DNA of 64,000 nucleotides from positions 1-64,000 of IMG/VR virus record IMGVR_UViG_3300032294_001352; one strand, given 5' to 3'. The stretch's first letter is position 1, and every line of letters starts with the position of its first letter. Below, in pieces: positions 5,096 to 52,658 of this stretch. The DNA is from a virus. The notes under the pieces are model-generated. The model did not search any database. It worked only from the letters and a program-made list of their open reading frames with translations, and was not told the origin of the DNA. A program made the position numbers and the translations under genes.

Positions 5096-6343
5096 ATGGG
5101 CCGTAATCGTAAAAAGGGTGGCGCAGGAGCAGGTGCAACGACGGCCACTCCAGTGCCGCAAGCAAACGCAGGAACAATCAATGGTTGGGAGCAAATTGGT
5201 GACAACGCAGACGGAACGCTTACCAAAGTGTTGCCAGATGGCACCGTCTTGACTATCTATCCAACGTCCTCTGGTCCAAATGATTTTGCGATTGACGTTG
5301 AGCAAGATCGAAGTGGTGGCGTTAGTGTGATTGCTGTAGAGGATGCACGCAACGCTGATGGCACGTTCAACATGGATGCAATTGCGGCAGCAGCACAACG
5401 CTACGCAGAAGCGTTGCAATCAGAAGAACCGTATTATGAGGATGAGGCAGAATTACAGTCAGGCCTTATTGACTTTCTCAATGAAATTGGTCGTGAAACT
5501 GGTGCACCTGGCTTCTTTGATCGCTTACTCCGTGGCGAACCAGTGCAGTCACCACAAGCCGTGGCTGAGTCACGCAAATTGGCTGATGAGTCCGCAAAGG
5601 CAGCAGATACGTTTGGTACGGTGGTGCAACGCATGGCACCGGACCAGATGAATGCACAACAGGCTGCTGCGGCACGTCAGGCCATTATCCAAGGCATTCA
5701 GGCTGCTGGTGGTGCACTGAGTAAGCAGGATTTGGCTGATATGCAGCGTATTGCTGGAATGCTCTCACCAAACTTTGTTGAGCGGCAACGGAATCGTGTG
5801 TTGGGTGGAATTGCTGCACTTGGCCGGATGCACGCAGACGTGGCCACGGCTTTGCGTCGTGGTACTAATGCTGGCATTCAGGAAGCGTTGGATCGCACGT
5901 CACGCGTAGAAGACGGCCTCCGTACTACGGTTGACACAGTGATGCAAGGTGCGCTGCAACAAGATGCGTTAGTGCGGCGCCTTAATGCACTATCCAAGCG
6001 TGCTGAGCGTCAGGGATTCCCAGAACCAGCACGTCAGGCCATCATTCAGGCTATCCGCTCATTACCACTTGTAGAACTGGAAAAATCAAGCAGTGGTGCT
6101 GTGGGAATGATTGCGCGCCTTGGTCGCAATGGCTTACTTCCAAGCGTACAAGCCGTAGCACAAGCACGCCAGTTGGGTGGGCGGCAAAACTTGCAGGCCA
6201 ATGTACAGGAAACGGCTGAGGGTATTGCGCGTGCAATCACTATCCGTCGTGAGCAACAAGGCCAGAAGTCACCTGCCAAACAAATCACTGATCGCCTACG
6301 CACGTTAGAGCGTGCCAGTGCTGTAGCACGCTCTGGTCGATAA
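5096..6343 (+). CDS. MGRNR-tagged protein 4, Ala/Gln/Arg-rich helical
   Basis: AGGAG RBS then MGRNRKKGGAGAGA. Confidence 0.75.
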   Translation: MGRNRKKGGAGAGATTATPVPQANAGTINGWEQIGDNADGTLTKVLPDGTVLTIYPTSSGPNDFAIDVEQDRSGGVSVIAVEDARNADGTFNMDAIAAAAQRYAEALQSEEPYYEDEAELQSGLIDFLNEIGRETGAPGFFDRLLRGEPVQSPQAVAESRKLADESAKAADTFGTVVQRMAPDQMNAQQAAAARQAIIQGIQAAGGALSKQDLADMQRIAGMLSPNFVERQRNRVLGGIAALGRMHADVATALRRGTNAGIQEALDRTSRVEDGLRTTVDTVMQGALQQDALVRRLNALSKRAERQGFPEPARQAIIQAIRSLPLVELEKSSSGAVGMIARLGRNGLLPSVQAVAQARQLGGRQNLQANVQETAEGIARAITIRREQQGQKSPAKQITDRLRTLERASAVARSGR

Positions 6344-7410: not shown

Positions 7411-7785
7411 TTATTTCACGCACATCTCAATGAGCAACGCGCGGAGATGTGCATCTTGCATGGCCACACTTGCTTGGTCTGGTTGCACAGGCAGCATGGC
7501 AATGACTTTCCGGATAATCGCATCGGTGATGGGCAGCGTGTTTCCCTCACGATCTGCTGGACCAGTAATCACGGATGGACCAAACAGCGTGTGGCCAAAC
7601 AGTGCCACGATTCCCCAGTTCAATCCCATGCCTTGGCCAATCCCATCATCATTCACGAAGATGCTATATTGACGCTCTCCGAGCACGTCAAAGTATCCTC
7701 CAACGTGCTCTTGCAATGATTCCATCCCAATGTCAAACAATGGCACCCACTCTGCGTTATCGGTAATCTTGATTCCTTTAATCAT
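7411..7785 (-). CDS. DUF3846-like protein
   Basis: LQEHVGGYFD...IFVNDDG...N...LFGPSVITG. Confidence 0.65.
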   Translation of the reverse strand: MIKGIKITDNAEWVPLFDIGMESLQEHVGGYFDVLGERQYSIFVNDDGIGQGMGLNWGIVALFGHTLFGPSVITGPADREGNTLPITDAIIRKVIAMLPVQPDQASVAMQDAHLRALLIEMCVK

Positions 7786-50793: not shown

Positions 50794-51948
50794 ATGAGTT
50801 TTGCGATTGACATCCGACAGTGGAAGACGGTAGAAGCCTTTGAGGCGCATCTGAATGCACACGATCCTGCTATCTGTGATTGGGTGCAAGGCATCGTGAT
50901 TCATCATACGTGGCGACCACTGCCCAGTCAGTGGCGTGGCCGATCGTCGATTGAGGGAATGAAAGCGTACTATGAGCGGCAGTCACCACCGTGGACTGCT
51001 GGACCACACTTGTTCATTGTGACTGGCAGCCCTAATCCGTCTGATGACGGTATCTGGCAGATGACTCCGCTCAACATGGTGGGTGTACACGCTACGGTGT
51101 GTAATCCAACAACGTGGGGCATTGAAGTGGTGGGTGACTATGATGATGAACCGTGGACATTTTCTACCAAGCAGTTGGCGGTTGGTGCTGCTGCGGCATT
51201 GGCCAAGTGGCGCGGAATCATCATCTCACCTCAGACGGTAAAAGGCCATCGGGATTGTAAGAGCAGCAAGTCATGTCCAGGCAATGCCATCAACATGCAG
51301 CAGGTGCGTGACTGGATTAACGCAGAGATCAATGGCACACCAGCGCGTGAACCAATCACGGCTGACAGTCAGATCCTTGCGGCACCACGATGCAGCATGG
51401 AAACTGCGTTGGATTACATCATGAACCGGAATCCACGGCCTGCGTACACGCTGAGTGATTTCTCTATTCATATCCTGCCTGCATACTGGCAGTTAGGCAA
51501 ACTGACTGGTGTTGATCCGTGTATTGCCATTGCCCAAGCAATCCATGAAACGGCCAACTTTAGCAGTTGGTGGTCGTTGCGCCCACGACGCAATCCTGCT
51601 GGGATCGGGGTGACAGGCCAATCTAGCCGAACCGCGCCACATCCTGAGGAAGTCAACAAGTGGGCATATGACAAAGACGTGAACCTGTGGAAGTTCGGTT
51701 TATCGTTCCCATCATGGCAGGTGAGTGCATTGGCACACATGGGCCGATTATGTGCATACGCAACCAAGCCTGCTGAACGCTCACCAGAGCAACAGAAGAT
51801 TGTAGAACAAGCATTGATGATGCGATCGCTTCCATTGGCCTTACAGGGAAGCGCGCCGGTGCTCTTTGGCCTTAATGGGAAGTGGGCTTATCCTGGCACC
51901 ACGTATGCCCAACGGATTGCTGCCATAGCCACAGAGATGGCATTCTAG
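50794..51948 (+). CDS. Endolysin: N-acetylmuramoyl-L-alanine amidase plus glucosaminidase-like domain
   Basis: IVIHHT, GPHLFI, HA..CN, GIEVVG, GHRD, KSCPG; then G.DP..A.AQ..HET and NPAGIG. Confidence 0.85.
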   Translation: MSFAIDIRQWKTVEAFEAHLNAHDPAICDWVQGIVIHHTWRPLPSQWRGRSSIEGMKAYYERQSPPWTAGPHLFIVTGSPNPSDDGIWQMTPLNMVGVHATVCNPTTWGIEVVGDYDDEPWTFSTKQLAVGAAAALAKWRGIIISPQTVKGHRDCKSSKSCPGNAINMQQVRDWINAEINGTPAREPITADSQILAAPRCSMETALDYIMNRNPRPAYTLSDFSIHILPAYWQLGKLTGVDPCIAIAQAIHETANFSSWWSLRPRRNPAGIGVTGQSSRTAPHPEEVNKWAYDKDVNLWKFGLSFPSWQVSALAHMGRLCAYATKPAERSPEQQKIVEQALMMRSLPLALQGSAPVLFGLNGKWAYPGTTYAQRIAAIATEMAF

Positions 51949-52033: not shown

Positions 52034-52062
52034 TTGACAAACTATACATTTTGTCTTACAAT
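52034..52062 (+). promoter_or_regulatory. Sigma70-like promoter for the ncRNA cluster
   Basis: TTGACA-17 bp-TACAAT. Confidence 0.75.
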
Positions 52063-52361
52063 GACTGACATGAGGGAATGGCGTGTGGGGAGAGAAAAAA
52101 CCGTGACTGACACTCACGAGTACCTCACACTTAATGGTGAGAGATGGTAGTGGTTGCCATCCAGATGTGTTGACTCGCAATCAACATGTTGACACCAGCC
52201 GTAGGTGGTGCGACCACCTCAGCAGACCTACAAGCATTATCGGACTCCGTGCGCTGGTAATGTGGAAGGCGGGCACCTCGAAGAAAGAAAGCGTCGCACA
52301 GGAACTGGTACTCGGTATTACACTGAGTAGGTGGGCAACCTGCCAAATAGCCCACCGTTAT

Positions 52362-52494
52362 GGGGATGCTCTGGTATTGACAGGGTGATTTGGCAATCAG
52401 TAGCGATAACTGCCCACGGGAAGACGCGAACGCTGCCTGCCTTTAATGGTGATAATCATTCTGGACTGCGGTTCGACTCCGCACATCTCCACCA
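52362..52494 (+). ncRNA. ssrA: Minimal tmRNA-like RNA (133 nt)
   Basis: Acceptor GGGGATG/CATCTCC with G3:U, ACCA end, T-arm TGCGG-TTCGACT-CCGCA, unpaired D-loop GGTATTGAC, helix CAGGGTGATT/AATCATTCTG. Confidence 0.75.
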
Positions 52495-52496
52495 AT

Positions 52497-52658
52497 GCTC
52501 AGGTTTCGTTTGGGAAGTTTGACAGGGAGCGCAATCCTAGGATGTTATCGCCGATCCGGCCAATCGGATAGTGGAATCCCGACGGGGATAGAGTGAGAAA
52601 TCATCCGCTCACCAAATTGCGCCCACATACGCAGGTTCAATTCCTGCCCTGAGCACCA
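52497..52658 (+). ncRNA. Oversized tRNA-like RNA (162 nt) with no canonical anticodon arm
   Basis: Acceptor GCTCAGG/CCTGAGC + ACCA; T-arm GCAGG-TTCAATT-CCTGC; internal multi-hairpin domain. Confidence 0.65.

Follow-up and report, generated by a model that had tools for sequence, protein, structure and literature searches.

The transfer-messenger RNA (tmRNA) of bacteria is typically about 350 nucleotides (nt) long, and the shortest form with an open reading frame listed in a 2005 survey has 250 nt (PMC1168896). How much of this molecule ribosome rescue requires is a long-standing question, which has been approached through engineered deletions and through message-less organelle relics. Three of the four tmRNA pseudoknots are described as dispensable in vitro, and plastid tmRNAs as having few or none (PMC3985003); forms without a coding sequence and forms with a two-residue tag are on record (PMC11915505), and one survey placed tmRNAs in 2.3% of phage genomes (PMC9004378). 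Already known from phages, then, are tmRNAs as such plus one form made of the tRNA-like domain alone. Here we describe a 133-nt tmRNA-like RNA, called mini-tmRNA below, of a freshwater phage. Its gene occupies positions 52362 to 52494, on the plus strand, of the window, by which we mean the whole stretch of DNA that was analyzed, i.e., the first 64 kb of the 87,876-bp viral record IMGVR_UViG_3300032294_001352, which has direct terminal repeats; RNA position p corresponds to window coordinate 52361 + p. This natural form keeps the tRNA-like end and the frame-setting signal of tmRNA and drops the whole pseudoknot ring.

Like the standard one-piece tmRNA (Rfam family RF00023), the mini-tmRNA has a 7-bp acceptor stem with a G3:U pair, a discriminator A, CCA, a T arm, and a stemless D loop with a GG doublet; a connector helix leaves this domain, though at 10 bp it is shorter than the Rfam consensus P2, and a U-A-purine-N-pyrimidine context precedes a GCN resume codon. 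Unlike the standard form, it has no pseudoknots, its message is a 19-nt hairpin loop of at most five codons, a stop codon is present in only 8 of the 13 members of its family, an AGUA/GAA motif is added, and the hydrophobic end of the usual short hydrophobic tag peptide (PMC4131195) is missing. The domain-only forms lacking a coding sequence, known from mycobacteriophage DS6A and, at about 65 bp, from plastids (PMC4131195; PMC11915505), are comparable in being phage- or organelle-borne, drastically shortened, and of the alanine type with no usable tag; they carry just a short loop after the domain, whereas the mini-tmRNA adds 53 conserved bases comprising an arm, the motif, the resume context with GCC, and a small hairpin. 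Jakobid mitochondrial tmRNA, compared here by description and not by sequence, is likewise reduced, without pseudoknots or a tag frame, and yet conserved, but it is organellar, in one or two pieces, and described as without tag-coding sequence and with no mention of a resume context (PMC3985003; PMC11915505). Some bacterial tmRNAs, e.g., of Fermentibacterota, share a tag far below the usual 10 residues (two residues, Ala-Ala) but are, as described, otherwise full-size bacterial genes (PMC11915505).

Over 52362 to 52494 the RF00023 model scored 68 bits against a cut-off of 47 (E value, 2.3e-24), aligning end to end (model positions 1 to 374) with 282 central model positions deleted and 41 inserted bases in their place. 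tmRNA was the sole Rfam family above its own cut-off in the window, and this was the only Rfam tmRNA match in the whole 87,876-bp record. A first-pass annotation, made from the letters alone, had proposed an alanine-type tRNA-like domain here (G3:U, discriminator A, CCA, T arm, and stemless D loop); all of these elements are present, and the Infernal-type search that it named gives the score just stated. The second program that it named, ARAGORN, reported at default settings 0 tRNA and 0 tmRNA genes in the window or the whole genome, although it did call one relative (L209b, see below) a tmRNA. Relaxed ARAGORN settings returned 47 "tmRNA" and 185 "tRNA" calls, which we regard as noise. A permuted two-piece tmRNA (RF04321) scored 25.3 bits against a cut-off of 47, solely across the junction between the mini-tmRNA and the RNA next to it, and was rejected; each of these two RNAs pairs its own ends.

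Relatives were gathered by pattern scans and two model searches. The resulting family comprises, with the window copy, 13 distinct sequences of 132 to 134 nt from phage and metagenome contigs, with pairwise identities of 63 to 98.5% (median, 73%); the nearest to the window copy is L171, at 82%. Patterns for the 5' part of the tRNA-like domain alone found L165, L169, L170, and L171 and also returned the full-length phage tmRNAs L166 and L192 to L194. Patterns that additionally demanded the loop motif described below found L195, L197, L199, L202, L204, L207, L208, and L209 in metagenomes (8 of 16 stretches), and 10 stretches from viral contigs contributed two more, L249 and L251. Contig L209 proved with Rfam to have another copy, unmatched by any pattern, 2.2 kb from the first; the two (5295 to 5427 and 7473 to 7605) differ mainly in the D loop, in compensated pairs of the connector helix P2a, and in the middle loop codons (AFNAT versus AFTET). 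The Rfam tmRNA model gave 61.3 to 77.9 bits in the 10 relatives tested, so that 11 of 11 sequences including the window copy exceeded 47 bits (L249 and L251 were not run). Our own family model, R1, gave members 134 to 152 bits (142.2 for the window copy) and the best nonmembers among the loci searched 53.7 to 58.6 bits, the latter being forms of 80 to 81 nt that consist of the tRNA-like domain only. At default settings ARAGORN misses 12 of the 13 members, the single call being L209b (tmRNA, tag AFNAT-stop). Because the carrier phages share few proteins with the window phage, at 30 to 56% identity among the loci compared, the RNA is better conserved than the surrounding proteins compared.

When 185,579 species genomes of bacteria and archaea were scanned, three stretches came up, all chance matches in coding DNA, and no member; the pattern used does recover family members in other collections. 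By blastn, 50,697 GenBank phage records contained no full-length relative, the matches being seven records that cover at most 31% of the RNA, at the 3' part of the tRNA-like domain; a 1001-bp region likewise had no match among GenBank phages. A generic pattern for the 3' part of the domain matched at least 119 stretches, with no family member among the matches listed, which were ordinary tRNA-Ala genes, full-length tmRNAs, and long-arm tRNAs; a pattern for the loop only matched 24 stretches, 20 of them chance matches in protein genes. Relatives of the endolysin encoded upstream of the RNA lay in 42 loci from small unrelated phages, and a tmRNA was found in 0 of these 42 records. The closest cultured relatives by capsid protein are two Brevundimonas phages (approximately 40% identity), of which the one searched, Polewnik, is without such an RNA. 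Within the collections searched, the family is, on this evidence, restricted to phages.

A consensus fold was obtained with RNAalifold on 10 sequences, and pairs were then counted on all 13. The result is one nested structure in which 97.5% of 442 cells are paired, versus 83.2% in column shuffles, and 20 of 34 pairs are changed on both sides; 0 of 500 shuffles reached any of five measures. When the partners were slid by 1 to 3 columns as a control, 40 to 47% of cells were paired, with 4 to 7 such pairs changed on both sides. The covariation among homologs that the first-pass annotation had named as a further check is thus seen in all six helices, each of which has compensatory changes across the 13 sequences. 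Altogether, the comparison indicates that the fold is maintained by selection.

The tRNA-like domain begins with the 5' strand of the acceptor stem, GGGGATG (52362 to 52368), which pairs with CATCTCC (52484 to 52490; RNA positions 1 to 7 with 123 to 129). Its seven pairs are 100% paired in 13 of 13 sequences and include an invariant G3:U127; in L251 both pair 5:126 (A-U to G-C) and pair 6:125 (U-A to C-G) are changed and G3:U is retained. The stemless D-loop equivalent (CTCTGGTATTGA; 52369 to 52380; RNA positions 8 to 19) aligns one to one with the Rfam tmRNA consensus and contains the GG doublet, G12 and G13, invariant in all 13. There follows the 5' strand of the connector helix P2a (helix 2; 52381 to 52390), which pairs with 52454 to 52463 (RNA positions 20 to 29 with 93 to 102) and encloses 63 nt; 5 of its 10 pairs are changed on both sides, and 98.5% of cells are paired. 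Beyond it lies the T arm (helix 6; 52467 to 52483), with TGCGG, the loop TTCGACT, and CCGCA (RNA positions 106 to 110 with 118 to 122), of whose five pairs, 100% paired, four are changed on both sides, the T-loop bases T, T, C, and A being invariant. The discriminator A130 and the encoded CCA (131 to 133; 52491 to 52494) are invariant in 13 of 13, as is the alanine identity set as a whole (G3:U, A73, CCA). Because of this identity set, the CCA, the T-loop and D-loop bases, and the Rfam score, we infer that the RNA is charged and handled like the tRNA-like domain of tmRNA.

Within P2a, the first-pass annotation had drawn a 10-bp helix around a loop of about 65 nt; the helix stands, and the enclosed 63 nt turn out not to be an open loop but to form, with P2a, a three-way junction. 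One branch is an arm composed of helix P2b, an internal loop, a 3-bp helix, and the 19-nt loop as its cap; the other is a hairpin of 4 bp. P2b (helix 3) pairs 52392 to 52396 with 52433 to 52437, all five pairs being changed on both sides and 87.7% of cells paired. The internal loop places AGTA (52399 to 52402) opposite GAA (52428 to 52430), both invariant in 13 of 13, and is followed by helix 4, in which GCG (52403 to 52405) pairs with CGC (52425 to 52427; 100% paired). The small hairpin (helix 5; 52438 to 52451; loop TTTAAT) stands between the arm and the 3' strand of P2a; three of its four pairs are changed on both sides, and 98.1% of cells are paired. No pseudoknot ring (PK1 to PK4) was found in the enclosed 63 nt, which are occupied by these two nested, covariation-supported hairpin arms; a scan of all columns for extra covarying pairs in 10 sequences was too noisy to show any pseudoknot. 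Sarcin-ricin-type motifs commonly act as docking sites for proteins or RNA, and to our knowledge the AGUA/GAA motif is not known from tmRNA. The AGUA/GAA internal loop of the mini-tmRNA fits, in sequence and strand topology and by sequence only, the sarcin-ricin (S-turn) motif, for which AGUA/GAA is one of four derived sequences (PMC1865062).

These data bear directly on whether the element is a functionless remnant, i.e., an ssrA gene of full length, from phage or host, in decay, or else a tmRNA end copied as an attachment site. In favor of a remnant, ssrA is a frequent site of phage integration and fragments of it are often found in phages (PMC9004378), the full-length phage tmRNAs L166 and L192 to L194 have a tRNA-like domain much like this one, and the window copy has no stop codon in the standard frame. 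Set against this, both halves of the tRNA-like domain are present and paired, 13 distinct sequences have kept 132 to 134 nt at 63 to 98.5% identity with 20 compensated pairs, the 63% minimum excluding one recent clone, some relatives have promoter-like sites of their own, and the pattern scan of the 185,579 bacterial and archaeal species genomes found no copy, only the three chance matches. The possibility raised at first pass that relatives would expose a recent deletion from a full ssrA is excluded by the constant length and the compensatory changes, and we consider decay in any form very improbable. The evidence instead favors the initial suggestion of a stripped-down tmRNA-like RNA: there is a conserved family, every member tested passes the Rfam cut-off, and a promoter and a terminator-like hairpin accompany several relatives. 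As judged from these comparisons, the gene at 52362 to 52494 is real and conserved, a tmRNA-like gene in stripped-down form and not an ssrA in decay.

The loop that caps the arm (52406 to 52424) consists of A, TAACT (52407 to 52411), GCC (52412 to 52414), and CAC GGG AAG A, so that in RNA letters the loop begins A-U-A-A-C-U-G-C-C (RNA positions 45 to 53). This resume-like ATAACT-GCC had been noticed earlier, together with the lack of a stop in the GCC frame, and we confirmed both, this frame having no stop as far as the 3' end. In 13 of 13 sequences GCC is preceded by the frame-setting context U A A N U, of which only position -2 varies (C to G in L209b). Natural tmRNAs show strong conservation of U85 and A86, with a purine at 87, any base at 88, and a pyrimidine at 89 leading up to the resume codon (PMC2481249); the four bases just 5' of that codon rest on SmpB in the translocated complex, and Tyr55 and Tyr24 of SmpB read the frame-setting bases, with Tyr55 stacking on A86 (PMC8363625). 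The family context fits this consensus everywhere, its sole change falling at the position without preference. Five sequences were found without requiring the motif (window, L165, L169, L171, and L209b), and five of five have it. Because an invariant frame-setting context with GCC is presented on a rigid arm, we infer that the RNA goes beyond SmpB binding and offers a codon to the ribosome.

From GCC the frame encodes Ala-x-x-x-Thr (AHGKT, AFTET, AFNAT, or AYKQT), and the tag AFNAT-stop that ARAGORN reported for L209b is an independent call in this same frame. Usual tags end in a hydrophobic Ala-rich stretch; no hydrophobic proteolysis signal was found at the end of AHGKT, AFTET, AFNAT, or AYKQT. 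Codon 6 is UGA, exactly five codons after GCC, in 8 of the 13 sequences (L165, L202, L169, L199, L204, L209a, L209b, and L251), and the first base of this codon (CGA in the window, TGA in the eight) is the last C of the 3' strand of helix 4. Within that helix, pair 44:66 is C-G in eight sequences, U-A in four, and U-G in one, and pair 43:67 is G-U in six, G-C in five, and A-U in two; that a G-U pair is kept in a 3-bp helix in six sequences hints that the U may have some value. The comparison nevertheless indicates that the stop is not under strict selection and that UGA is explicable by RNA structure alone. A defined tag does not appear to be selected, because the stop is optional, codons 5 and 6 are embedded in structure, and the element is small. 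In a public run, a strain variant has codon 2 changed from CAC to CTT (one contig; depth, 3.5).

Two other frames were considered. The first-pass annotation had pointed to one reading EDANAACL-stop as a possible altered tag, and the +2 frame of the window copy does read PREDANAACL-stop; in the relatives, however, this frame stops after one or two codons (L171, L165, L202, L209b, and L251) or has no stop (L204 and L209a), and since it is not conserved the EDANAACL tag is unsupported. The +1 frame has a stop in 12 of 13 sequences, in 11 of them at codon 11, within the loop of the small hairpin, and none in the window copy; it starts with Pro, is out of register with the frame-setting A, and is taken as a by-product of the purine-rich loop.

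Our preferred reading, to which we assign a probability of roughly 0.45 and which is therefore tentative, is that the mini-tmRNA is a minimal phage tmRNA that replaces the host tmRNA on stalled ribosomes and thereby keeps the host degradation tag from being added. The RNA would be transcribed from the promoter at 52034 to 52062 and then excised in the manner of a tRNA. Host alanyl-tRNA synthetase would charge it through the G3:U pair and the discriminator A, and host SmpB, invoked because the phage encodes no SmpB, would together with EF-Tu carry it to ribosomes stalled at the ends of broken messages. There, the 19-nt loop on the end of the rigid arm, all that is left of the message, would present the bases by which SmpB sets the frame, followed by GCC, on which the ribosome could resume. 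At most five codons (Ala-x-x-x-Thr) would then be read, with no degradation signal of the host type and with a stop that is optional in the family, UGA forms possibly releasing the protein with a five-residue tag. The function under selection would be to engage stalled ribosomes and so uncouple rescue from tagging for proteolysis. Searches for SmpB, an RF-1/ArfB domain, and peptidyl-tRNA hydrolase (Pth) found none in the window genome or in four records that carry relatives (G043 to G046), with control genomes giving the expected matches; because none of the three turned up in these five phage records, host factors would be needed. Bare domains of 80 to 81 nt exist in phages, which suggests that the extra 53 conserved bases do more than a bare domain does.

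Several observations weigh against this reading. Codon 6 is CGA, with no stop to the 3' end, in 5 of 13 sequences (window, L171, L195, L197, and L249), such forms occur at three separate places on the tree, and a ribosome that resumed on one of them could not terminate normally. In helix 4 the deciding C or U pairs, from the 3' strand, with a G or A, and the GAA after it is half of the AGUA/GAA motif; UGA may thus reflect RNA structure and not selection for a stop. Codons 5 and 6 sit inside this structure. Apart from the five sequences found without requiring the resume motif, the remaining eight of the 13 came from patterns that demanded it, and the invariance of the resume motif is thus partly built in. 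A standard tmRNA forms a ring of 81 by 97 to 96 by 128 Å around the 30S beak (PMC8363625), which the enclosed 63 nt could probably span only if all inner helices melted. Folded by itself, the window RNA reaches -39.6 kcal/mol (z = -0.52), an energy that 55 of 200 shuffles equal or surpass; since it is no better than that of shuffles, support for the structure comes from the relatives and not from thermodynamics. Finally, no listed public run is on record as RNA, and the lone run labelled cDNA is flagged as probably DNA.

The main rival is that the RNA is a decoy, itself never translated, that binds host SmpB, perhaps along with EF-Tu and alanyl-tRNA synthetase, and blocks trans-translation in the host; the loop would serve as a second grip on SmpB after folding back along the connector helix. 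The stop is dispensable (missing in 5 of 13, with CGA at three places on the tree), the sixth codon is buried in helix 4 and the AGUA/GAA motif, and there is no phage SmpB to be titrated alongside that of the host. There is precedent in the domain-only form of mycobacteriophage DS6A, and a similar molecule is described as strongly inhibiting tmRNA, perhaps by SmpB titration (PMC4131195; PMC11915505). The geometry would also allow it: the connector (10 bp) and the arm (5 bp, motif, and 3 bp) are similar in length, so that the loop could reach SmpB at the base of the tRNA-like domain. For mere gripping, however, a bare domain of 80 to 81 nt is enough and exists in other phages, and the 53 further conserved bases, GCC included, would be unneeded; UGA five codons past GCC in 8 of 13 sequences, in six through a weaker G-U pair, hints at some benefit of U at that position; and it is unclear what a phage that needs host ribosomes would gain from blocking their rescue. 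On balance we think a pure decoy somewhat unlikely but a serious rival.

In another alternative, the RNA is a decoy or target for a nonribosomal partner, e.g., host defense proteins with SmpB-like RNA-binding domains or a phage or host factor that the loop pairs with or binds, specificity being set by the 7 to 9 variable loop bases. Among type IV restriction systems, those called CoCoNuT have SmpB-like domains for which tmRNA binding is predicted (PMC11090510), the two copies in L209, 2.2 kb apart, differ mainly in the variable loop patch, and AGUA/GAA agrees in sequence with an RNA motif that is known to recur (PMC1865062). Yet no defense or partner gene is linked to the RNA here, matches or complements of the loop motif are not in excess in the window (16 with at most one mismatch versus 12.2 expected), and the alanine identity set and CCA are kept in 13 of 13 sequences, pointing to aminoacylation and so to translation. 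We regard such a partner as decidedly improbable.

A bolder extension of the preferred reading, of a minimal tmRNA that engages stalled ribosomes, would make the family the smallest natural RNA to perform both halves of trans-translation, a particle consisting of a tRNA plus its own codon; we think this unlikely. The arm would fold back, SmpB would hold the frame-setting bases, and translation would resume on GCC without a pseudoknot ring; UGA members would release the protein with a five-residue tag that does not signal degradation, and CGA members, such as that of the window phage, would park the ribosome. If so, phages would be tuning what becomes of proteins, their own and those of the host, that are translated from cut messages, e.g., under attack by host RNases.

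In the literature we found no description of a pseudoknot-free phage tmRNA of about 133 nt with a resume context, and the supplementary tables of one study (PMC11915505) and the phage list of another (PMC9004378), which lay outside the search, could hold such a form. The mini-tmRNA may show how small a ribosome-rescue RNA can be, and it adds a second, more elaborate class to the few phage RNAs that may manipulate host ribosome rescue; its natural variants with and without a stop offer ready material for tests of charging, binding to SmpB, frame setting, and termination. Because default ARAGORN misses 12 of 13 members and the GenBank phages, the annotated record collection searched, hold none, these genes are likely to go uncalled in routine phage annotation.

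With respect to expression, a sigma-70-type promoter (TTGACA, a 17-nt spacer, and TACAAT; 11 of 12 consensus matches) lies at 52034 to 52062 on the plus strand and is the only promoter-like site on either strand between 51700 and 53100. No better site was found in the 90 nt directly upstream of the RNA, where the best has 7 of 12 matches. Upstream of the promoter is an endolysin gene (amidase_2 plus glucosaminidase; 50794 to 51948), and downstream of it, on the plus strand, comes a leader of about 300 nt (52063 to 52361) with no convincing gene and with a GGTGGGC/GCCCACC hairpin that ends 5 nt before the RNA. A second tRNA-like RNA, with a nonalanine acceptor, occupies 52497 to 52658 of the plus strand (fold z = -2.14), starting two bases past the CCA; behind it come small genes and a recombination and replication block with genes for a Rad52-like protein, a glucosyltransferase, a sliding clamp, and a ParB-like protein. 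No terminator-like site was found on the plus strand between these elements. The promoter is the likely start of a transcript with the leader, the mini-tmRNA, the second tRNA-like RNA, and the downstream genes, and in the window phage the mini-tmRNA is probably cut from the 5' part of this longer transcript. Other members are arranged differently: a promoter-like -10 element ends 10 nt before the first G in L165 and L202 (12 of 12 matches), L169 and L199 (10 of 12), and L204 (9 of 12), L195 and L204 have GC-rich hairpins after the CCA, and in L171 and L197 the RNA starts directly after a stop codon.

One contig of public run X2 (depth, 4.5) has 183 other bases in place of 52063 to 52358, between 52062 and 52359; because the contig keeps the promoter side and the RNA, the leader appears to be exchangeable as a block between strains. 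The run labelled cDNA (probably DNA) yielded a 239-nt contig over 52330 to 52566 with no differences, which is uninformative on expression. Several relatives have beside the RNA a GC-rich word (GGGGGTAGGGGGTGCCCC type) or its complement, upstream in L169 and L199 and downstream in L171, L197, and L249; it may be a regulatory element or a repeat that this group of phages has in common.

The second tRNA-like RNA adjoins the mini-tmRNA in 0 of 12 relatives, whose downstream flanks are genes or hairpins. It ends in CCTGAGC, A, and CCA, and a pattern for its T arm and acceptor 3' strand matched 22 viral loci, which ARAGORN called tRNA-Leu in 18 cases, tRNA-Arg in 1, tRNA-Phe in 1, and nothing in 2; none of the 22 is homologous to the 162-nt RNA itself. 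The neighboring RNA may be a leucine-type tRNA mimic. Directly upstream of the L249 mini-tmRNA, on the minus strand of that contig (L249:11400-11560), there are two stretches resembling a T arm plus acceptor, ending in CAGTGACA and AGAGTGACCA; both are uncalled by ARAGORN and may be further unusual tRNA-like genes.

Other short or rearranged tmRNA-like genes were seen along the way. The domain-only genes of 80 to 81 nt lie in viral contigs (L047:3031-3110, L116:1354-1434, and L139:6686-6766) and have G3:U, CCA, and a short loop; they score 65 to 74.5 bits with the Rfam tmRNA model, above its cut-off, and are missed by ARAGORN, and the L047 copy directly precedes three tRNA genes. In Stenotrophomonas phage BUCTxx99 (L214; OR529408.1, approximately 98,640 to 98,720), an unannotated 3' tRNA-like half is followed a few bases later by a 5' half (GGGGATGCC...TTCGAC), and the same order, also unannotated, occurs on the reverse strand of Synechococcus phage S-CRM01 (L215; HQ615693.1, approximately 88,400 to 88,520); this layout is that of a permuted two-piece tmRNA gene. 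Two viral contigs, L164 and L167, have a tmRNA 5' part with, about 120 nt past the pattern match, an ordinary-looking tag ending in LAA-stop and no 3' half ending in CCA within 460 nt, and may represent two-piece or intron-bearing tmRNA forms.

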